A DNA stretch of 64,000 nucleotides from Candidatus Saccharimonadota bacterium (GTDB lineage: Bacteria; Patescibacteriota; Saccharimonadia; Saccharimonadales; Saccharimonadaceae), in the NCBI GenBank assembly GCA_017515205.1, contig JAFWHN010000005.1:13-64012 (forward strand), in the 5' to 3' direction. The notes under the pieces were generated by a model, which searched no databases, was not told where the DNA came from, and was given only the letters and a program-made list of their open reading frames with translations. Within the stretch, counting starts at the first letter, position 1. Every line of letters begins with the position of its first letter. Made by a program: the position numbers and the translations under genes. This document shows positions 3,301 to 60,143 of the stretch, piece by piece.

Positions 3301-5934
3301 TTATATTAGTTTGAGTTGTTGTTTTAATCTTTCAATCAGTGCTTCTTTTTCACGAATTGCATCTTCGGTTTCTTTTACCAAATGTTCAGGTGCTTTTGAT
3401 ACATAATTTGGGTTCATCATCCTTGCATTTAACCCGTCTAACTCTCGTCCAACCGCCAGAATCTTCTCTGTTAGAGATTCTTTATATTCCGAGACCACCT
3501 TTTCTGGCACGTCTAAGTAAAGCTCGTGATTTGCTAGGGCTAATCTTAAACCACGTGGGGCTCCCTCTAAGGCGTTAATTGTCGGCACCTTCGCCAAAGT
3601 CTTTATTAGCATCTGATTGTCTTTTACTAGACTGTCGTTATCGTACATCAATCCATATTTTTTCGCGTTATTGGTACCTGGCAGGGCCTGTAAGGTGCCT
3701 CTCACTTCTGAAACGACAACCATAAGCTTTTCAAAATTCTCGGCCGAAATTGGGTCAAATTCAAGTTTTTCAGGCCATTTGGCGGTAGCCACAAATCCAT
3801 CAGCCCAACTCAAGTTTTGCCAAATCGCCTCCGTCACGAATGGTGCAAACGGATGCAAAGCAATTAAGAGTGTCTCGAGAGTCTTCTTTAGAAGTGGTAC
3901 ATTCTTAAACATCTTTTGGCTCTCTAGGAACCAATCTGCATATTTATCCCAAATAGTCGAGTAAAGTGTTTCTACCGCTTCTGCAAATCGGTAGTTCGCC
4001 ATATCTTGTTCAACTTGCTCCAAGCACTCATTAATCTCTCGGCAAATCCAGTCTTCACCCATATTTAACGTGGTATATTCGAGTTCAGAAGAATGTAAAT
4101 CATCTGTCTTTTTCTCATCTACTATTCCTTGTATAAGCCTAGAAATATTCCAGAGCTTATTACATAGATTCCGTCCCGCAATCACTGCATCTTCCGCAAA
4201 CGCCTGGTTCATCCCAGCCGATCTACCCCTGAGAATGCCTAATCTAAACGCGTCCGAGCCGAACCTCGTCACTAGGTCCATCGGGTTTATCACGTTACCT
4301 TTAGATTTGCTCATTTTTTGCCCGTGTGCATCCAGTACCAAGCCGTGTAGATAGACTTCTTTAAACGGTACTTCACCCGTCACATACAGCCCCATCATAA
4401 TCATCCGTGCTACCCAAGCAAACAGAATATCCGCCCCAGTTTCCATCACGTTCAAAGGATAATACGGGTTATAATTCTCTTCCGTCCAATCCGTACAGAC
4501 AATCGGCCAGTGTGCCGAAGAAAACCAAGTATCAAACGTGTCTTCATCTCTTACGTATCGTACCCCGCCCTTCTCTATTTCACGTAGATTTGTCCTACGA
4601 TCAAAAATCCAATCCGGCTCGTCAGTCGCAGTTTTATCAACCTTTCTAAACATCGGAATTGCAATTCCCCACGGAATTTGTCGCGAAATATTCCAATCCT
4701 TCAAACCCTTTAGATAATTAATTAGAACTTTACACTTGTTCTCAGGATAAAACTTAATTTCGCCAGCCTCCAGATGCTTGATTGCCACTGCTGCCAACTT
4801 TTCTACATCCACAAACCATTGTTCCTTGAGCATCGGTTCAAGCGTGGTCCCGCATTTGTAGCAATGCGCCACCGAATGCACTATCTTCTTCTCGCCTCTT
4901 AATAGATCTTGTTCTTTCAGATCTTTCAAAACCTTTTTACGGCATTCCTCTGTCGTTAGACCAGCATACTCAGAGGGCACATTCACCATCTTGCCTTCCT
5001 CGTTAATTACTTGGAGTCGCGGTAAATTGTGCCGTTCTCCCACTTCAAAATCATCAAAATCATGCGCTGGGGTAATTTTCACTGCACCCGTCCCGTAGGC
5101 TGGATCAGCGTGCTCATCAGTAATCACTGGAATTTCTCTTTCCGTAAGAGGTAGTTTTACCATTTTTCCAATCAAATCAGTGTATCTCTCATCATTTGGG
5201 TTCACGGCCACTGCCGCATCGCCAAACAAAGTTTCTGGACGGGTAGTGCTGACGATGATTTCCTTTTTACTCCCCTTTACAGGATAAGCAATATCCCACA
5301 AAGTTCCCTTTTCGTCTTTGTGTTCTACCTCAATATCCGCAAAAGCCGTTTGATGTTTCGGGCAGAAATTAACCAATTTTTCTCCCCTGTAAATCATCCC
5401 GTCTTTCCACATTTTCTCAAATGTCGTGTAAACCCGGTCCACCACATTTTCATCTAGAGTAAAAGTCAAATCATCCCAAGCACAAGAAGCCCCTAAGGCG
5501 CGGAGTTGTAACTCCATGTTCCCTCTCTGTTCGGCCACAAAATCCCACACCCTAGCGTACAGCTCATCTCTTGAGAATTCAAATCTAGTGTGGCCTTGTT
5601 TTTCCAGGAATCTTTCATATACCACCCAAGTCTCAAAACCAGCATGGTCCGCTCCCGGAATATACCAGGTCGAAATACCCTTTAAACGATGATATCGAAT
5701 CAAAGAATCCTCTAAAGCCACCGTCAAACCGTGACCAATATGGAGGTTCCCATTTGCATTTGGCGGAGGCATCACGATAGAATAAGTCAAATTCCCCTGT
5801 CGGTCATCAACTCCATTCCCATCGTTATCCGTCGGCACTCTAGGCACGCTTGGCGTAAAAACACCCGAAGCCTCCCAGGCCGCATAAATATCTGATTCAA
5901 ATTCCCCCGGTTCGTAACTTTTTGCAAATGTCAT
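3301..5934 (-). CDS. valS: Valine--tRNA ligase
   Basis: PPPNANGNLHIGH (HIGH), KMSKS, TTRPET editing domain, C-terminal coiled coil. Confidence 0.97.
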   Translation of the reverse strand: MTFAKSYEPGEFESDIYAAWEASGVFTPSVPRVPTDNDGNGVDDRQGNLTYSIVMPPPNANGNLHIGHGLTVALEDSLIRYHRLKGISTWYIPGADHAGFETWVVYERFLEKQGHTRFEFSRDELYARVWDFVAEQRGNMELQLRALGASCAWDDLTFTLDENVVDRVYTTFEKMWKDGMIYRGEKLVNFCPKHQTAFADIEVEHKDEKGTLWDIAYPVKGSKKEIIVSTTRPETLFGDAAVAVNPNDERYTDLIGKMVKLPLTEREIPVITDEHADPAYGTGAVKITPAHDFDDFEVGERHNLPRLQVINEEGKMVNVPSEYAGLTTEECRKKVLKDLKEQDLLRGEKKIVHSVAHCYKCGTTLEPMLKEQWFVDVEKLAAVAIKHLEAGEIKFYPENKCKVLINYLKGLKDWNISRQIPWGIAIPMFRKVDKTATDEPDWIFDRRTNLREIEKGGVRYVRDEDTFDTWFSSAHWPIVCTDWTEENYNPYYPLNVMETGADILFAWVARMIMMGLYVTGEVPFKEVYLHGLVLDAHGQKMSKSKGNVINPMDLVTRFGSDAFRLGILRGRSAGMNQAFAEDAVIAGRNLCNKLWNISRLIQGIVDEKKTDDLHSSELEYTTLNMGEDWICREINECLEQVEQDMANYRFAEAVETLYSTIWDKYADWFLESQKMFKNVPLLKKTLETLLIALHPFAPFVTEAIWQNLSWADGFVATAKWPEKLEFDPISAENFEKLMVVVSEVRGTLQALPGTNNAKKYGLMYDNDSLVKDNQMLIKTLAKVPTINALEGAPRGLRLALANHELYLDVPEKVVSEYKESLTEKILAVGRELDGLNARMMNPNYVSKAPEHLVKETEDAIREKEALIERLKQQLKLI

Positions 5935-17305: not shown

Positions 17306-17352
17306 ATAAAAATGACTAAATTAAGTAGGATTCGCATCAGATAAAGTGGGAT
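17306..17352 (-). repeat. Third, degenerate tRNA-Gln 3'-end/hairpin unit (left half)
   Basis: tgactaaattaagtaggattcgcatc vs unit at 18612 tggctagtttgagcaggattcgcatc (first 22 nt match 17/22). Confidence 0.7.
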
Positions 17353-17377
17353 ATCTCAAGTCTAATGAAACCCCTAG

Positions 17378-18460
17378 TTAAGTTTTATCTTTTAAAAATA
17401 CTTTTCGCATAGACGGAAGCCGTATTTTTGCTAACTCTACCATGCTGTAAACAGATATTGACACTACGAATGTACCAACATAAAGCATAATCATTTTTGT
17501 AGTCACCGACAAATAATCATTCAAATATAGCACAATTACTTCATTTACTACTTGATGGAATAAGTAAAAACAAAGCGATATTTTTCCTAGGAAATCAAAC
17601 GGCCAAAAACGAATCTTCGATTGTAATGTTTTCCCTGATAGCAATAATGCTAAAGTCAACATAAAGAAGAAAATAACATTAAACGAGTATAATCTGTCCT
17701 CAAGCACGAGCATACGATTGTTCGTCCATAAAAATATCAAGCTGATGCCAAAACATAATAACTCTGCTATCGATAAGAAGACTATCCAAACTTTTCGAAA
17801 ATCTAGTTTTTTAATATATTCACTTAATACATAAACAATTGCGCCCATACTTAAGCCAGCCAGTGAGCGTAAAAGCGTAGTTGTATCAACACTACTAAAA
17901 GTAGCAAAGCCTAAATAATATGTTAAACAAAAAGGAACAATTAAGAAAAAGAGAAATGTTTTATGTTTTGATTGGCAAAATGTACAAAAAATCGGGTAAA
18001 TCACAACTACTGCGGCTAAATACCATGTCAGTCCAAGTGCTCCACCCCCCTGTGTATTTAAGAGCGTTAATTCCAAAACCATTCTCTTGAAAAAACCGAG
18101 CAGCTCTTCTAATGAGTTAAAATCTAGGTAAATAAATTTAACTAAATACATTAATAACACGGCTATAATCGTGTAAGGCAAGAACACCTTAAATTTTTTC
18201 CAAGTATATTTCGCCGCTTCCTTACATTGTTCATCAAAACTTTTTTCTTCATATTTTTTATTTGCAAAATGTTTAACCGTAAAATAGCCAGTTAGCATAA
18301 AGAACAATTCAACGAACAAAAACGCTCCAGCGAAATGAAAGACGGAAAAATTTTCCTGGTATCGTATGTACGGTGAGTGATACCAGATAATGAAAATGCA
18401 AGCTATAAAACGTAACAATTCAACCACACTAATGGGCCTGTTTTCTTTATTCTTCTTCAT
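17378..18460 (-). CDS. Acyltransferase-3 (OafA/YrhL-like) membrane O-acyltransferase
   Basis: VVELLRFIA, VELFFMLTGYF, WYLAA, LGKISLCFYLFH; ~10 TM helices; AT-rich. Confidence 0.88.
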   Translation of the reverse strand: MKKNKENRPISVVELLRFIACIFIIWYHSPYIRYQENFSVFHFAGAFLFVELFFMLTGYFTVKHFANKKYEEKSFDEQCKEAAKYTWKKFKVFLPYTIIAVLLMYLVKFIYLDFNSLEELLGFFKRMVLELTLLNTQGGGALGLTWYLAAVVVIYPIFCTFCQSKHKTFLFFLIVPFCLTYYLGFATFSSVDTTTLLRSLAGLSMGAIVYVLSEYIKKLDFRKVWIVFLSIAELLCFGISLIFLWTNNRMLVLEDRLYSFNVIFFFMLTLALLLSGKTLQSKIRFWPFDFLGKISLCFYLFHQVVNEVIVLYLNDYLSVTTKMIMLYVGTFVVSISVYSMVELAKIRLPSMRKVFLKDKT

Positions 18461-18567
18461 CTAACCTCCCATAAAAAAAGAGACAATCATTCTACAATTA
18501 TCATCTCTCAAATTACCTCCACTTACGGTTATTATAACGAATAAGTAGCATAATATCAAGCACACAT

Positions 18568-18688
18568 TGAGATCCGAATCCTCGTTTTTTGATTTTTTAT
18601 CTTATAAAAAATGGCTAGTTTGAGCAGGATTCGCATCGAACGAAGTGAGATCCGAATCCTCGTTTTTTAATCTTTTGTGAAACAAAAA
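18568..18688 (-). repeat. tRNA-Gln-linked ~77-bp tandem repeat units
   Basis: tgagatccgaatcctcgtttttt at 18568 and 18646; tggctag at 18612 and 18689. Confidence 0.88.
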
Positions 18689-18858: not shown

Positions 18859-21036
18859 ATGCCTAGAAAAAAGCGAAAATCAACACGAAAAACTTCTCGG
18901 CGCTCCACTTCCAAAAAAGAAGCACCAGTTGAATATGAACTTCCCGGTGGTTTTTGGCGTCAAATTGGCGCAATCGTTATGATTGCACTAGCTCTTTTTT
19001 TCGTTGTCACTTGGTTCGGTCAGGGCGGTACCATTTTTAACAAAGTTCATGAATTTATTTTAAGCGGACTGGGCTTTGCTACTTACTTTATTCCAGCTCT
19101 ATTAGTTTATCTTGCCGTAAAAATTTTCCGTTCAGATGACAATCGCGTTGCGGTGCCGGTTTATATCGCAAGCGTTTTAATGATTTTCTGGATTTCCGGC
19201 ATCGCTGCAATTTGGCAAAATGGTGGACTCGTTGGTAGTTGGCTTAATTCTTTATCTACTAAGTTTTTAAGCCAAGGCGTGGTTATTTTTATTTACATCA
19301 TTTTGATTTTTATCACTACGGCTTTTCTCTTGCAACTTTCTCCAGTCACCTTCTTTAAAGGCACCAAAAATATGGTCAAACGTAGCAAAATCCCTGAAGC
19401 AACCGACGAAGATGATACCAAAAAAAGCAAAAAACTTGGTCAACTCGAAATTAAAGTCAATTCTGGCCTTAATGGGGAACAACCAGCTTCGTCTAGTCTT
19501 TTGCATAAATCTCCTGCTAAATCTGCTCCCGAACCAGCTAAAGAGCCTACAGCTCTTGTAGCAGTTTCTGATCCAGATTGGAAAATGCCAACTGTCGACT
19601 TACTAGAGAAAAAACAATCTCCAGCTGATGCTGGCAACATTCAGCAAAACGCCTACATCATTAAATCTACCTTGGCAGAATTTGGTATTGATGTTGAAAT
19701 GGAAGGTGCCAACGTTGGTCCACGCGTTACGCAGTATACCATGCGTCCACCAGCCGGCGTTAATCTATCCAAAATTCTTTCCCGTGACAAGGAATTAGCC
19801 CTTAATCTTGCTGTCGACAAAATTCGTATCGAAGCGCCAATTCCGGGCACGCGTTCAGTTGGCGTTGAAATTCCAAATGCTCGGTCTGCTGACGTACGTT
19901 TGCGTGGCGTGCTTGAAAGCCCTGAATGGAAAAAGTCTAATGATCCACTTTGTTTTGCCGTTGGTAAAGACATTTCCGGTCACGCCGTAATAGCCAATCT
20001 GGCTAAAATGCCTCACCTTCTCATCGCAGGTACCACTGGTTCAGGTAAGTCCGTTATGACCAACACCCTCATTAGCTCCCTGCTTTATCGCAATACTCCT
20101 TCCGACATGAAACTCATTATTGTCGACCCAAAACAGGTTGAAATGGCCCAGTATCAAGACATTCCTCACCTTCTTACGCCAATTATTACCAGCACCGAAA
20201 AAGCTCTTTCTGCCATGAAATGGGCAGTTGGCGAAATGGAACGTCGTTACACTTTGATGGCAGAAGCAAAAGTCAAAAACATCGGTGATTACAACGCCAA
20301 AATGGCTAAATCCGATCAAGAAGAAAGCGAAAGCAAAATGCCATACATTGTAATTGTGATTGATGAAATGGCTGACCTTATGATGATGGCGGGGAAAGAC
20401 CTTGAAATGCTCATCGTCCGCATCGCTCAAAAAGGCCGTGCTGCCGGTATTCATTTGGTACTTGCTACTCAGCGTCCGGAAGTAAAAGTTATTACTGGCC
20501 TTATTAAGGCTAACATTCCAGGTCGTATCGCCTTCGCGGTCGGTTCCCGCATCGATTCTCAGATTATGCTCGACCAAGGTGGTGCTGAAAAACTTCTTGG
20601 CAAAGGTGATATGTTGCTTCTCACCACTGAAATGATGGGTAAACCACGTCGTATTCAGGGCGCTTGGGCCTCTGATGAAGACATCAATAAAGTGACTGAT
20701 TTTCTCCGTTCTCAACGTGAGCCACAGTACAACGACGAAGTGATTGCTCAACAAGTTGCCATTAAAGGTATGCCAGGCGGTGGCGGCCCAAGTGACCTAG
20801 GTCGGCGTTTTGATCCGAATGACCCAACCGTCAGAAAAGCCGTTGAAATCACTCTAAAACAAGGTAAGTTTTCTACTGCATCATTACAAACTTGGCTAGG
20901 TAAAGGTCACGGTTTTGTAGCTGGACTTGCAATTTGGTTGGAAGAAATTGGCGTCATTGGCCCTGCAAACGGCAACAAACCTCGCGATGTCCTCATCACT
21001 TCCATGGACGAGTTTGACCAACTGAGCAACATGTAG
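18859..21036 (+). CDS. ftsK: DNA translocase FtsK/SpoIIIE
   Basis: 4TM N-terminus, HLLIAGTTGSGKS, IDEMADLM, ATQRP, gamma domain. Confidence 0.96.
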   Translation: MPRKKRKSTRKTSRRSTSKKEAPVEYELPGGFWRQIGAIVMIALALFFVVTWFGQGGTIFNKVHEFILSGLGFATYFIPALLVYLAVKIFRSDDNRVAVPVYIASVLMIFWISGIAAIWQNGGLVGSWLNSLSTKFLSQGVVIFIYIILIFITTAFLLQLSPVTFFKGTKNMVKRSKIPEATDEDDTKKSKKLGQLEIKVNSGLNGEQPASSSLLHKSPAKSAPEPAKEPTALVAVSDPDWKMPTVDLLEKKQSPADAGNIQQNAYIIKSTLAEFGIDVEMEGANVGPRVTQYTMRPPAGVNLSKILSRDKELALNLAVDKIRIEAPIPGTRSVGVEIPNARSADVRLRGVLESPEWKKSNDPLCFAVGKDISGHAVIANLAKMPHLLIAGTTGSGKSVMTNTLISSLLYRNTPSDMKLIIVDPKQVEMAQYQDIPHLLTPIITSTEKALSAMKWAVGEMERRYTLMAEAKVKNIGDYNAKMAKSDQEESESKMPYIVIVIDEMADLMMMAGKDLEMLIVRIAQKGRAAGIHLVLATQRPEVKVITGLIKANIPGRIAFAVGSRIDSQIMLDQGGAEKLLGKGDMLLLTTEMMGKPRRIQGAWASDEDINKVTDFLRSQREPQYNDEVIAQQVAIKGMPGGGGPSDLGRRFDPNDPTVRKAVEITLKQGKFSTASLQTWLGKGHGFVAGLAIWLEEIGVIGPANGNKPRDVLITSMDEFDQLSNM

Positions 21037-21148
21037 CAAAAACCGTGCTTGCACGGTTTTTCTATGTTGCGAAAGTTGGACGAATTATTCGACCAACTGA
21101 GCAACATGTAGCAAAAACCGTGCTTGCACGGTTTTTCTATGTTGCGAA
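21016..21148 (+). repeat. Tandem 58-bp exact direct repeat (period 75) containing the ftsK 3' end and a hairpin
   Basis: 21016-21073 is identical to 21091-21148; internal palindrome aaaaaccgtgc-tt-gcacggttttt. Confidence 0.92.
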
Positions 21149-39835: not shown

Positions 39836-41701
39836 ATGCAAGGATTAAAAGACCAACTTAAAAAAATTATTCAAGATTTGTATGGCCTCGATTTTGATCC
39901 CGAAGTTACTCCTGCTCCCGAGAATGTCACTGCCGATTATTCTACCAATGCACCCTTGAAACTTGCCAAAGAACTCCATAAATCTCCAATGATAATAGCA
40001 GAGGAGTTACAGAAAGCTTTTGTGAGCGTTCGCGACGACGGGAGCGAACGACGAAGCGCCGCCCGTAACGACGGGCCGGCGCGAGGAGGCGAGCAAAAGG
40101 TTTCTATAACTCCTCCTGGATTCATCAATTTCACTTTATCCGATTCTTACCTAGCAGAAAAGATTGATAGTTTATCAACTGATTTTGATCAATCTATTGT
40201 CTCTAATGATTACAAAGGTAAGACTGTGATTTGCGAGTTCAGCGATCCCAATCCTTTCAAAGTCCTTCACGTTGGTCACCTTTATACTAGTATCGTCGGT
40301 GACGCCATTTCAAATCTTTTTGAATATGCCGGCGCTAAGGTCATCCGCGCCAATTTCGGTGGTGACGTCGGTCTTCACGTGGCTAAAACCATGTATGTTC
40401 TACGGCAAAAGAATCCCAAAGAGATTCAAATCGAAGACATCTCCAGATGTTATGTCGAAGGTACCGCTCTTTATGAAGAAGATGAAAAAGCTCACCAAGA
40501 AATTACCGAGCTTAACAAAGAGATTTACAAAATCAATTCCGAAAACCTTCACGATTCTGACCTCGCTGAGTTATACTGGCAGGGCAGGGAATTATCTTAC
40601 GATTATTTCAAGAAGTTTTATGAGTCTATCGGCGTCAAGTTTGATAAGTATTATCCTGAATCTACCGTTGCGGCTCTTGGTCTAAAAACTGTCAAAGAAC
40701 AGCTAGAAAAAGGCGTCTACGAAAAAAGTGAAGGTGCTGTGATTTTCAACGGTGACAAATATGGCCTCCATACTCGCGTCTTTATTAATAGAGAAGGTGT
40801 CCCTACTTACGAAGCTAAGGATGTGGGTCTAATCTTCACTAAATGGCAAGATTATCATTTTGACAAATCTGTCGTCATTACTGGTTCCGAGCAGCTTGAT
40901 TACATGAAAGTGGTCTTAAAATCGGTCGAACAATACGCGCCCGAATTAGTTGAGCGCACCAGCCATTTAACTCACGGCCTTGTCAAACTCCCTGGTAATG
41001 TCAAAATGTCTTCTCGAAAAGGTAATTTCTTAAAAGCCGTTGACGTTCTCGATATGGTCAAAAACGAGCTAAAAACTGAGTATAACTCCGATGACGAGAT
41101 TGTCTCTCTCGCTGCTACCAAATATGCTTTCCTGAAATATAAAATGGGCGGCAACATTATCTTCGATCCGAAAGAATCCGTCAAAATGACCGGCAATTCC
41201 GGCCCATACCTGCTATATTCCGCCGTTCGTGCCGAAAAGATTCTTGAAAAGACGCAGGAGGGGCTCAAAAACAAGACACGAGTGAGCATTCACGACAACG
41301 GGAGTGAACGACGAAGCGCCACCCGTGACGACCGTCGTAGGAGCCGAGAAGACGAAAAGCTTGCTTTTCGTGTCGAGGCCACGCCCGACGGACGACCTAT
41401 GGTCGACGGGCCGGCGCGAGGAGGCGAGCGAGGGCTTGTTTTTGAGCCCTCCGAACGTGACTTATCTAAAAAGCTGTTGGACTATAAAGGAGTCTTGCAG
41501 GTCGCCGTTGCCGAAATGGCTCCGCACAAATTAGCGAATTACTTATACGAACTTGCCCAAACCTTTAGCCGTTTCTACGAGAGCTGTCCTGTAGCTGGCA
41601 GCGATCGAGAAGAGGAGCGCTTAAAGCTCGTCCAAGTCTACCTAGACACCATGACTCACGGTCTTAAAATTTTAGATATTAATATTCCGGAGGAAATGTA
41701 A
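39836..41701 (+). CDS. argS: Arginine--tRNA ligase with two in-frame repeat insertions
   Basis: PGFINF, DPNPFKVLHVGH, KMSSRKG, GNSGPYLLY; start after TATAAT + 6 nt. Confidence 0.95.
   Translation: MQGLKDQLKKIIQDLYGLDFDPEVTPAPENVTADYSTNAPLKLAKELHKSPMIIAEELQKAFVSVRDDGSERRSAARNDGPARGGEQKVSITPPGFINFTLSDSYLAEKIDSLSTDFDQSIVSNDYKGKTVICEFSDPNPFKVLHVGHLYTSIVGDAISNLFEYAGAKVIRANFGGDVGLHVAKTMYVLRQKNPKEIQIEDISRCYVEGTALYEEDEKAHQEITELNKEIYKINSENLHDSDLAELYWQGRELSYDYFKKFYESIGVKFDKYYPESTVAALGLKTVKEQLEKGVYEKSEGAVIFNGDKYGLHTRVFINREGVPTYEAKDVGLIFTKWQDYHFDKSVVITGSEQLDYMKVVLKSVEQYAPELVERTSHLTHGLVKLPGNVKMSSRKGNFLKAVDVLDMVKNELKTEYNSDDEIVSLAATKYAFLKYKMGGNIIFDPKESVKMTGNSGPYLLYSAVRAEKILEKTQEGLKNKTRVSIHDNGSERRSATRDDRRRSREDEKLAFRVEATPDGRPMVDGPARGGERGLVFEPSERDLSKKLLDYKGVLQVAVAEMAPHKLANYLYELAQTFSRFYESCPVAGSDREEERLKLVQVYLDTMTHGLKILDINIPEEM
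40022..40094 (+). repeat. GC-rich palindromic element, copy 1 (in argS)
   Basis: 73 nt; near-identical to 41282-41332 joined to 41408-41429. Confidence 0.9.
41261..41449 (+). repeat. Palindromic element copy 2 with nested 75-nt insert and 15-bp terminal inverted repeats (in argS)
   Basis: gggctcaaaaacaag (41261-41275) and cttgtttttgagccc (41435-41449) are perfect inverted repeats. Confidence 0.9.
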
Positions 41702-57635: not shown

Positions 57636-59555
57636 ATGCCAGACGATAATGTAAACCCAGTTCCAATGAGTCAACCAGCCGCTCCTACGGCGACCGATGA
57701 TATGAGCGCTATGCCAATACCAGAGCCTGTGCCTAGTCCGGCAGATGATAATCCGGTCGTAGAGCCAACTGTTCCTCCCGAGGTTCCTCCTGCTGATCAG
57801 CCCGATTCAGCCTCAATTTATGCAGAAGTGGCCAGCAAAATTGCGGAATCCAAGAACATTTTGGTTGCATTATCGAGTGACCCTTCAGTGGACGAAATGT
57901 CCGCCGCAATTGGACTTTCAATTTACCTTGGCAGATTAGGCAAACGTGCTACTGCAATTTACTCTGGCGCCACGCCAAATGCTTTGGAATTTTTGAAACC
58001 GGAAGAAACTTTTGAATCTACTGCAGATACCTTACAAGATTTTGTAATTGCTCTTAATAAAGACAAAGCCGATCATTTGCGCTATAAGTTAGATGGTGAT
58101 TTTGTTAAAATCTACATCACCCCGTACAAGGCTCGTATCACTAAAGAAGATTTGGATTTCTCATACGGCGATTTCAATGTTGATCTCGTACTAGCACTCG
58201 ATGTTGCCAACGGCATTGACTTAGATTCCGCGCTTCGTGAACACGGTCGTATCATGCATGATGCTGTAATTGTCAATATCACCACAGGCAAACCTGGCAA
58301 ATTTGGCGAAATCGAATGGAGCGATAAAACCGCCAGTTCCGTTTCTGAAATGATTGCTAACTTACTATTTAGCATTAAGAGTGATGTCAAAATTGAAAAA
58401 GAGGAAGCCACTGCTTTCCTAACTGGTATCGTGGCTGCTACCAATCGTTTTTCTAATGCTACCACCACCCCAGAGACTATGAAATTAGCTTCTAAACTCA
58501 TGGAATCTGGTGCTAATCAACAGCTTGTTTCGCAAAACATTACTCCAGATGTTGAAAATGAATTCTTCTCGATTTCAGCTAACAAAACCGCTAAAAAACC
58601 AGAACAAGATCCGACTAAACTCGAAATCGAACACGATGGCGAAGGCGAAGCGGTTGATGAAGACAAAGAAGTTAGTGCCACTGTCAATGAAAAAGAGAGC
58701 ACTCTATTAGACGATCTGAAAGCCGCTGAAGCTAGCCTTGCTCAAACTGGCGCTGAAACTACACCTGAATCCGATCATACTGCGCTCAAAATTGATAGCG
58801 CTACCCCAGCTCCAGCTCCAGAAGCCGAAGCTACGCCTTCTGAAGAACCTGAGCAGCAGGAAAATGAATCACTTGAACAAAATACTGATGTTGCTCCAGA
58901 ACCAACGGCTGAGCCAGAGTCAAGTAGCCCAGCTGAACCAGTCTCGACTCCTACTATTGAACCATCTGGTGGAATTTTAAGTGATACCCCAAAAGAGCAG
59001 GATGCTGAATCAGCTTCAGAGACTTCCTCAGAGCCTACTTCTGAACCTACTCCAGCAATCACCCCAGAACCTACTTCAGAAACTGTCCCAGAAGAACCAT
59101 CTGGCCAAATTTCAGATAAACCAGAAAAAGTACTTCAACCTTCATCCGATTTAAGCACAGATACCACTGAAGCAGAACAAAATAAATATGGTCAAATGCT
59201 AGAGGATGCCTTGAATAGTGTAAACAGCGCTTCAGAAGCTCCAAGTATGCCAGCAGAGAACCCTGCCACTATGAGTACTCCAAGCGTGCCAGATAATCCA
59301 GAAATCAACGGTGTCCCAGAAATTAATTATATGCCAATGCCAGGTGACGAGATTTTACCACCTCCTCCTACTCCACCTATTGACCCTGCAGGCGGTTCTG
59401 TTACTGCGCCAGCTCCTATGACGCAACCTATAGAACCGGCCGCACCGGCGCCAGAACCAGCTCCTACTCCACTTGGGCCTCAACCAGCTATGCAAGATCA
59501 AGTTTACGCTCCTCAAGCTTCCGACCCAGGTGCCTTCAAAATCCCAGGAATGTAA
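57636..59555 (+). CDS. DHH-fold (NrnA-like) protein with long Pro/Glu-rich disordered tail
   Basis: NILVALS.DP..D, SSVSEMI, ATAFLTGIVAATNRF; DHH motif not present. Confidence 0.7.
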   Translation: MPDDNVNPVPMSQPAAPTATDDMSAMPIPEPVPSPADDNPVVEPTVPPEVPPADQPDSASIYAEVASKIAESKNILVALSSDPSVDEMSAAIGLSIYLGRLGKRATAIYSGATPNALEFLKPEETFESTADTLQDFVIALNKDKADHLRYKLDGDFVKIYITPYKARITKEDLDFSYGDFNVDLVLALDVANGIDLDSALREHGRIMHDAVIVNITTGKPGKFGEIEWSDKTASSVSEMIANLLFSIKSDVKIEKEEATAFLTGIVAATNRFSNATTTPETMKLASKLMESGANQQLVSQNITPDVENEFFSISANKTAKKPEQDPTKLEIEHDGEGEAVDEDKEVSATVNEKESTLLDDLKAAEASLAQTGAETTPESDHTALKIDSATPAPAPEAEATPSEEPEQQENESLEQNTDVAPEPTAEPESSSPAEPVSTPTIEPSGGILSDTPKEQDAESASETSSEPTSEPTPAITPEPTSETVPEEPSGQISDKPEKVLQPSSDLSTDTTEAEQNKYGQMLEDALNSVNSASEAPSMPAENPATMSTPSVPDNPEINGVPEINYMPMPGDEILPPPPTPPIDPAGGSVTAPAPMTQPIEPAAPAPEPAPTPLGPQPAMQDQVYAPQASDPGAFKIPGM

Positions 59556-59566
59556 AAAACCGTATT

Positions 59567-59592
59567 AAAAAGAGGCTCTAGGCCTCTTTTTT
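59567..59592. terminator. Bidirectional terminator
   Basis: aaaaagaggc-tcta-ggcctctttttt. Confidence 0.7.
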
Positions 59593-59601
59593 GTACTAAA
59601 A

Positions 59602-59765
59602 CGGCGTATTCACACGTTCGACGAGGCTCGCACCGAGCCGCAGTCGAGATCCGAATCTCTCTTTTTGATATTTTTTTCGTAAAAAAAAATGGCGGATCCG
59701 CACCGAAGGTTCGAGCTTTGCTCGACGAGGCTCGAACTCGCGACCGCTTTTTTTCGTAAAAAAAA
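59602..59765 (-). repeat. Two degenerate tRNA-Asp 3'-end copies with hairpin inserts
   Basis: tggcggatcc at 59690 and 59766; acgaggctcg occurs three times; gagatccgaatctc motif near 59646. Confidence 0.88.
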
Positions 59766-59843
59766 TGGCGGATCCGACGAGGCTCGAACTCGCGACCTCT
59801 GCCGTGACAGGGCAGCGCTCTAAACCAACTGAGCTACGAATCC
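59766..59843 (-). tRNA. tRNA-Asp(GTC)
   Basis: GGATTCG/CGGATCC; CTGCC-CTGTCAC-GGCAG; TTCGAGC; CCA. Confidence 0.97.
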
Positions 59844-59924
59844 ACTCACCATATTATATATTATTTTCCCAGAATTACAACCCCCTTGTTATTTTCATCA
59901 GGGTATGGTATAATCACCACTGAT

Positions 59925-60143
59925 ATGTCTATAAAAGTTACTAGAAAAGACCAAGGAGAAGCCAACGAAAACATTATTCGTCGCTTCAATCGTAAAGTCC
60001 TTCAGAGCGGTATGATGCCTCTTAAGAAGTCGCAAATGCGCTTTACTAAGCCACTTTCAAAGCGCGAACGTCGTCTCAAAGCCATCATCCGTGAGGCTCG
60101 CAAAGCTGAAAAGACTGAGCGTATCAAATTAGGACTTAAGTAA
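59925..60143 (+). CDS. rpsU: 30S ribosomal protein S21
   Basis: ENIIRRFNRKV...FTKPLSKRERR. Confidence 0.85.
   Translation: MSIKVTRKDQGEANENIIRRFNRKVLQSGMMPLKKSQMRFTKPLSKRERRLKAIIREARKAEKTERIKLGLK

Follow-up and report, generated by a model that had tools for sequence, protein, structure and literature searches.

Trailer units behind tRNA-Asp in a Candidatus Nanosyncoccus genome as possible relics of small insertions at tRNA ends

Introduction

The closest described system is the RtT repeat of Escherichia coli (tyrT/tyrV; rttR, tpr; RF00391). Like the elements that we describe here from Candidatus Nanosyncoccus, RtT units stand in tandem directly behind a same-strand tRNA, and, as read from NC_000913, they have the same parts: an antisense T-arm segment (GGGGAAGGAT, tRNA positions 59-68), the dinucleotide GA, a sense copy of the 5' half of the T-arm (AAGGTTCGA), a folded core with GCGAAGC, and lastly a copy of the 3'-terminal 19 nt of the tRNA (AATCCTTCCCCCACCACCA). 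RtT is known at one tRNA type, whereas the Nanosyncoccus elements occur at at least 15. Neither the origin nor the function of RtT is known to have been explained in about 40 years of study (Rossi 1981; Bosl & Kersten 1991).

Two further kinds of sequence invite comparison. Duplications of attachment (att) sites of the T-loop class share with the Nanosyncoccus units a direct repeat from T-loop to CCA, tandem accretion and occasional cargo (an acyltransferase at tRNA-Gln); by contrast, the Nanosyncoccus units have no integrase, are 50-190 nt long, carry a repeat that is local on both sides, and contain an antisense T-arm and a folded core. Repeats that reach from a T-loop to the tRNA 3' end were reportedly presented as an integration signature by Williams in 2002. 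Elements of the MITE or REP type (REP/BIME, Rickettsia palindromic elements, IS200/IS605 derivatives) are likewise small, non-coding, present in multiple copies and patchy between species, with stems that covary without strand bias and with core-only copies in frame in ORFs such as argS. They differ in that the closing stem of the Nanosyncoccus elements comes from the target tRNA rather than from a constant terminal repeat, in that CCA terminates a long flanking repeat of 17-20 nt, and in that no parent transposase was found (PF01797 is absent from the genome studied here and present in two of 12 genomes).

Results

Two broken self-copies follow tRNA-Asp

Judged by its relatives, the genome (G000) belongs to Candidatus Saccharibacteria, genus Ca. 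Nanosyncoccus, and comes from the gut of a ruminant; it comprises 650 kb at 41% G+C with 46 tRNAs; the window, by which we mean the whole 64,000-nt stretch of DNA that was analysed, is contig C6. The tRNA-Asp gene is on the minus strand, such that its downstream self-copies have lower coordinates (Table 1), and the terminator of the convergent ORF is the far boundary of the trailer region. Direct reading and ARAGORN confirmed the original prediction that two self-copies lie downstream of the gene. Both are broken at the same site, as had also been claimed, with identity ending after ...CTCGTCG in unit 2 and in unit 3. When each of the 46 tRNAs was aligned with its flanks, tRNA-Asp gave a local alignment score of 47 against its 350-nt downstream flank, as compared with 12-20 for control upstream flanks without a neighbouring tRNA. 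Because of this difference, and because the 12-mer GATTCGGATCTC is confined to tRNA trailers, the self-copies are not attributable to chance. A search of other metagenome contigs for the unit 2 junction gave no matches, Rfam searches of the locus on both strands at E <= 1 returned nothing except tRNA-Asp itself, and a simple terminator consensus scan of 59560-59765 reported none.

Table 1. Features of the tRNA-Asp locus (window coordinates)
Feature	Coordinates	Strand	Description or evidence
tRNA-Asp(GTC)	59766-59843	minus	Intact, CCA encoded; ARAGORN and Rfam tRNA model, 65.4 bits
Promoter-like site of tRNA-Asp, TTGTAA-16-TATAAT	59853-59880	minus	Consensus scan match only
rpsU promoter	59886-59914	plus	Divergent from the tRNA-Asp promoter-like site
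Trailer 1, AT palindrome T8-ACG-A8 directly after CCA	59748-59765		Repeat families D2, I2-I5
Unit 2	59690-59747	minus	Sense tRNA copy, then the 24-nt insert, then the tRNA's final 10 nt
Unit 2, first part	59724-59747	minus	Sense copy of tRNA positions ~44-67 (variable loop and whole T-arm); repeats D1/D7
Unit 2, insert	59700-59723	minus	24 nt, gcaccgaaggttcgagctttgctc, ending in ACCTTCGGTGC; antisense T-arm-like
Unit 2, last part	59690-59699	minus	Last 10 nt of the tRNA, TGGCGGATCC = GGATCCGCCA; direct reading, D2
Trailer 2, AT palindrome repeated (T9-ACG-A7)	59671-59689		Repeat search D2/D5, spacing 76
Unit 3	59602-59670	minus	A-run, hairpin GAGAGATTCGGATCTC, GACTGCGGCTCGGTGC, GAGCCTCGTCG, decayed remainder
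Unit 3, short-type body	59630-59670	minus	A-run, hairpin GAGAGATTCGGATCTC, then GACTGCGGCTCGGTGC; hairpins predicted
Unit 3, surviving copy of tRNA positions 57-67, GAGCCTCGTCG	59619-59629	minus	D1, 62% over 26 nt
Unit 3, decayed remainder	59602-59618	minus	aacgtgtg and AATACGCCG; 6/9 match to tRNA 3' end, weak
Hairpin and T-run terminator of convergent ORF (57636-59555)	59566-59596	plus	Inverted repeat I4, ORF list

In at least five relatives (G001, G002, G006, G011, G013), tRNA-Asp and rpsU (S21) share one direction, with the tRNA gene immediately upstream. In G000, tRNA-Asp and its trailers are inverted relative to these (window 59766-60143), and hence are divergent from rpsU, with a promoter-like site of their own. 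The hairpins stacked between tRNA-Asp and the convergent gene have A- and T-runs on both sides; a likely side effect is that they would terminate transcription in both directions.

Unit 2 keeps 26 + 10 nt of tRNA sequence, split by its insert, and unit 3 keeps 11 nt. The repeat search found that 59723-59748 is identical to 59775-59800, corresponding to tRNA positions 42-67, at 25 of 26 nt. The T-loop segment GTTCGAGC appears in the insert in reverse-complemented form, as GCTCGAAC, so the inverted T-loop described in the original prediction is real and specific to tRNA-Asp, and gcaccga does begin both hairpin segments on the plus strand. The insert is placed between TCG and GATCC, a look-alike of the T-loop site between TCG and AATCC, and its terminal ACCTTCGGTGC is matched at all 11 positions by a tRNA-Ser unit at the beginning of contig C3. 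The plus strand of unit 2 is predicted to form a 13-bp hairpin followed by U7 (z = -2.9). Copies of tRNA-Asp are also broken near the same place in G001 and G021, by other inserts.

The body of unit 3 contains GGCTCG, antisense to the T-loop segment CGAGCC, and its right end, GGTGC, adjoins the surviving tRNA copy. An 8-nt insert followed by a motif common to both units had been proposed here; the loss of identity at the same site stands, but the proposed insert and motif are weak, with a match to the tRNA 3' end at only six of nine positions. The right end of unit 3 is GGCTCGGTGC followed by GAGCC, which fits the short-type right end, YTCGRTGC adjoining a direct tRNA copy at G57; that of unit 2 is CCTTCGGTGC followed by GGATCC, where YTCGRTGC lies at the pseudo-site. 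Units at tRNA-Gln, tRNA-Ser and tRNA-Tyr, and units in G363 and G360, have comparable right ends.

In unit 2 the duplication extends past CCA into the AT palindrome and has the appearance of an ordinary tandem duplication made locally. So does one at the 3' end of ftsK, a protein-coding gene, where the last codons and the terminator hairpin are tandemly duplicated (window 21013-21148; 75-nt period; 98% identical), again a gene end copied together with its hairpin. For these two cases, snap-back or tandem duplication at the locus is an attractive account, and the fold-back or template switching put forward originally is a viable rival for unit 2. Applied to the whole locus, it would hold that the T-arm and the palindromes act as quasi-palindromes, and that snap-back or template switching followed by later deletions produced everything downstream of tRNA-Asp, with no mobile element here. 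Besides the joint repetition of the tRNA end and the AT palindrome, with start-to-start spacings of 52 and 76 that are similar to the ftsK period, this account draws on "hairpin-only" units elsewhere in the genome, which are simple inverted and direct copies centred in the T-loop, for example GGAAGC..GGAT aatt ATCC..GCTTCC at tRNA-Ser(gga). It is nonetheless rather unlikely in our judgement, since the Asp T-arm could not have given rise to GATTCGGATCTC, and since the comparisons across tRNAs and species described below speak against it.

Short-type units recur at other tRNAs and in other species

About 10 of the 46 tRNAs (Ser three times, Gln, Tyr, Lys, Gly, Arg, Glu and Asp) have a partial copy of their own 3' end 40-80 nt downstream, as revealed by the alignment of all tRNA-downstream regions that the original prediction had called for. 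Before each copy comes a segment that is antisense to the T-arm of that tRNA, such as GGAC at tRNA-Tyr, and AGTCG or ACCCTCG at tRNA-Gly and tRNA-Lys. Absence of the motifs from other tRNAs had been named as grounds for abandoning the prediction; they recur at tRNA-Ser, tRNA-Gln and others. Allowing at most one mismatch, GATTCGGATCTC is found genome-wide only in four tRNA trailers, those of Ser-cga, Gln (twice) and Asp.

We refer to one group of these units as the short type. The pattern A5-NN-RGRATTCGRATCTC has 10 matches in 61 genomes, comprising five tRNA trailers in G000 (unit 3 and four others) and three other species, and the reversed-pattern control has none; eight of the 10 copies are behind a tRNA. 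Unit 3 matches the A-run and RGRATTCGRATCTC hairpin pattern with one mismatch (59646-59666), and is thus a decayed short-type member. An intact short-type unit, with an exact 20-nt copy, is found behind tRNA-Gln in G363. The body behind tRNA-Ser in G360 and that behind tRNA-Gln in G000 are identical at 28 of 30 positions, spacer included, and each is followed by its own local copy of a tRNA end, which is not expected if local replication errors are the only cause. A degenerate version of the pattern has 58 matches in metagenomes, three of them with a same-strand tRNA 25-33 nt upstream and most with none nearby; most of the 58 are probably chance.

Several trailers in this genome have features of their own. 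On the minus strand at window 17313-18688, tRNA-Gln(ttg) is followed by a decayed short-type unit and then a second body. A 360-aa Acyl_transf_3 ORF (17378-18460), with its own promoter-like sequence, lies between the short-type body and a decayed tRNA-Gln end (GATGCGAATCCTACTTAATTTAGTCA, ~17313-17338); because this end lies beyond the ORF, the gene is inside a trailer unit. Contig C3 (1-125) starts within a tRNA-Ser that shares its 3' end exactly with tRNA-Ser(cga) on C6 but has a different trailer, an intact mini-unit with an exact 20-nt repeat. Contigs of several relatives also break at tRNA-Tyr, and trailers may cause assembly breaks or reflect strain variants.

A long type with a conserved fold is found across the genus

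A second type, of ~130 nt, is found in relatives and behind tRNA-Arg, tRNA-Asn, tRNA-Lys and tRNA-Ala of G000. After the CCA of the tRNA and a terminator palindrome come two reverse-complemented stretches, positions 59-65 and then positions 51-56, with GA between them. A loop separates the second of these from a sense copy of positions 49-57. The core follows, then a variable hairpin whose loop is often GCGAAGC, and finally a sense copy of positions 58-76. From five copies we built a covariance model, R1, which covers the closing stem, a GAACC-GTA-GGTTCG hairpin and the core. Among 47 genomes of the genus, R1 copies number 0-33 per genome; R1 also has matches in 14 of 18 further genus members. 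One other genus carries R1 copies, several in each genome; across the class, 160 genera include 17 with matches at E <= 1e-6. Of ~24 evaluable full-length matches, 21 have a same-strand tRNA 50-200 nt upstream, and at least 15 tRNA types are represented. The inverted T-arm of unit 2, which the original prediction had treated as a consequence of fold-back at this tRNA, is thus not a one-off but the counterpart of a segment that is constant in a genus-wide family. R1 itself gave no significant match to the Asp units (window 59691-59789, opposite strand, 9.6 bits, E = 2.2); their putative membership of the family rests on architecture and short common motifs rather than on R1.

Exact CCA-anchored copies of 17-20 nt (position 57-60 to 76) are present in 14 long-type loci. 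At most loci, CCA is the exact limit of the duplication and the two terminators are unlike each other, an arrangement that a tandem-inversion duplication, and hence local error, would not give. The length of the flanking repeat varies, from 4 nt at tRNA-Ala and tRNA-Pro and 7 nt in argS to 17-20 nt at T-loops. The only significant R1 match in the window is a core-only copy in frame in argS (41330-41391). Core-only copies in the argS frame (41330-41391 and 40022-40105 / 41282-41365; R1 positions 23-88, 41 bits) have a GACGACC direct repeat on both sides, resembling Rickettsia palindromic elements. In G023, four tandem trailer units, each with its own terminator, follow tRNA-Ser(gga) (positions 4225-4890 of piece L226); they end in ATCCTCTCGCTTCCGCCA, one base off the current tRNA, and an IS200 copy is 1.25 kb away.

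The long-type stems covary. Across 29 copies, 94% of cells are paired, as compared with 38-51% for slid partners, and 32 of 35 pairs show compensatory changes, a value reached in none of 500 shuffles. The closing stem varies with the tRNA type, with all seven of its pairs covarying. G·U and A·C combinations are about equally frequent in these stems (20 and 18), with no strand bias; these stems are thus not kept intact on a single RNA strand. This suggests palindromes at the DNA level and leaves a one-strand RNA structure unsupported. A DNA-level origin would also fit local replication errors. The suggestion that a read-through transcript carries an anti-T-loop likewise finds no support, the same counts arguing against selection on one RNA strand.

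These counts bear on the possibility that the trailers are a functional RNA module like RtT RNA, cut from the tRNA transcript and serving in processing, as a decoy, in regulation or as a terminator. The conserved fold with its many compensatory changes is what such a module would show, the layout is that of the expressed E. coli rttR, and the plus strand of unit 2 forms a predicted hairpin and U7. At C9:191652-191811 of G000, moreover, the CCA of a tRNA-Tyr copy adjoins the first base of tRNA-Thr(ggt), such that RNase P would free a CCA end; G044 has the orthologous tRNA-Tyr unit in a more decayed state. However, the equality of G·U and A·C, the range from 0 to 33 copies per genome in one genus, the free decay of copies (Asp unit 3, Gln, Arg), and the position of the terminator, which usually precedes the element, make a functional RNA improbable.

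Comparison with RtT was made in both directions. R1 matches the copy in the tyrT-tyrV spacer (E = 3.7e-6), a fourth RtT-type unit (GAAGGGTGAGAACC..TAAGGTTCG..AATCCTTCCCCCACCACCA; NC_000913 1287363-1287478) that RF00391 recognises as well. RF00391 (gathering score 45 bits) has no match at E <= 1 in the window or in Nanosyncoccus loci; as a positive control, it finds four copies in E. coli at 133-138 bits. Like RtT, the Nanosyncoccus family stands behind tRNAs and has a ~19-nt copy of the 3' end including CCA, exact over 17-20 nt in the 14 loci described above. The layout is thus common to both, but the two are different sequence families.

An empty and a filled site at tRNA-Val

At tRNA-Val(tac) of G000, CCA is followed directly by a terminator and the next gene. 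In G017, CCA is followed by a ~170-nt insert and a 19-nt repeat, and then by the orthologous terminator and gene. The same ~170-nt insert, differing by 1 nt (99% identical), is found in G061 in another downstream context. The repeated tRNA end is local in each species (CATCACCCACCA versus CACAACCCACCA), matching that species' own acceptor stem, which is local on both strands (ATCACCC versus ACAACCC). Local repeats around a near-identical insert fit target duplication at insertion, and not conservative site-specific exchange or import of a whole block; import of the whole tRNA and element block by homologous recombination is rejected for tRNA-Val because of the acceptor stems, local on both strands. 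At tRNA-Tyr of G011, the right copy has a local CCAAC variant that the left antisense flank lacks.

Two diverged species that carry a 99% identical insert, each with its own local repeat, are difficult to reconcile with local errors alone. That element bodies are common to different tRNA types and species points to the insertion of mobile units, in place of the purely local template switching suggested originally.

The same site informs a further alternative, that the repeats are attL/attR scars of islands or prophages that a tyrosine integrase placed in the tRNA-Asp T-loop and that were then almost wholly deleted. A classic signature of integration by a tyrosine integrase is a repeat that starts in the T-loop of the tRNA and reaches its 3' end (PMC9897764), and the repeats described here fit it; tandem arrays such as the four units behind tRNA-Ser in G023, and the Acyl_transf_3 gene between a short-type body and a decayed tRNA-Gln end, would also be in keeping with integration. 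Conservative exchange, however, predicts a donor-type side, whereas both tRNA-Val copies are local, a test of the family rather than of the Asp locus. Elements with the same body are found behind many different tRNA types, the repeat spacing is 50-190 nt at ~10 loci (52-76 nt at tRNA-Asp), and the genome has one PF00589 gene, ~25 kb away. We consider integrase scars very improbable.

No candidate enzyme tracks the elements

That PF00589 gene (C6:33974-34507) encodes the only Xer-like recombinase in G000, and no integrase gene or island was found between or beside the repeats. The Y1 transposase PF01797, with the distribution given above, does not track the elements, and nor does Cas1, found in two of 12 genomes; reverse transcriptase, found in 10 of 18 genomes, is uncorrelated with them, and a search of the genus for small GIY-YIG genes found none. 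The end hairpins (CCCCCGGA..) of IS200 copies in G023 and G053 are unrelated to the elements. We rejected an integron-like attC site: there is no IntI, and the T-loop GTTCGAA is unlike the core site GTTRRRY. Searching viral contigs for the core pattern identified no viral source; the single match lies on a contig without any tRNA and has no tRNA-trailer context, and we take it to be chance, the contig being G+C-rich by eye.

Discussion

On balance, we favour the reading that the trailer units behind tRNA-Asp are relics of mobile, DNA-level, target-duplicating insertions at tRNA ends, aided by an antisense T-arm, although the evidence leaves considerable room for doubt: the length of the flanking repeat is not fixed, which is unusual for a transposase, and no candidate enzyme co-occurs with the elements. 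We propose that 59602-59765 holds two tandem, decayed units of small non-coding elements that settle right behind Saccharibacteria tRNA genes. An intact element would consist of an AT-rich or terminator palindrome after CCA, an antisense T-arm copy, an optional conserved folded core, and a direct repeat of the last 17-20 nt of the tRNA, from T-loop position 57-60 through CCA; the antisense segment would pair with the direct tRNA repeat and close the hairpin. Unit 3 would be a short-type insertion old enough for its tRNA copy to have decayed. Unit 2 would be younger, a 52-nt duplication of tRNA positions 42-76 and trailer, with a 24-nt antisense-T-arm mini-insert at a pseudo-site that mimics the usual T-loop site; its inverted T-loop corresponds to the antisense T-arm segment that is standard in the family. 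The locus is a worn example, of value chiefly because it shows units accumulating in tandem and a pseudo-T-loop site being used. From the family as a whole, we infer that insertion takes place in DNA and duplicates a long stretch of the target, and that the antisense T-arm helps to recognise the target.

A more far-reaching version, which we regard as unlikely, is that the elements are protein-less mobile units guided by nucleic acid, with E. coli RtT a fossil of the same process. The antisense T-arm could serve as the guide to the T-loop; it matches the target except at the central dinucleotide 57/58, the point of insertion. Alternatively, mature tRNA could be involved. Reverse transcriptases copy the 3' stretch of a primer tRNA up to m1A58, and the repeat coincides exactly with the 3'-terminal ~18 nt of the tRNA, between A58 and the CCA end.

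Such fragments should not be annotated as tRNA pseudogenes or as island att sites. If the elements are mobile, few known site-specific insertion elements would be smaller (~45-190 nt, gene-free). Their target, the T-loop and CCA end of a tRNA, is universally conserved, and its use would leave the tRNA gene intact. Their mobility would also help to explain the tRNA 3' fragments that litter ultra-small genomes, the assembly breaks at tRNAs, and the origin of RtT repeats.
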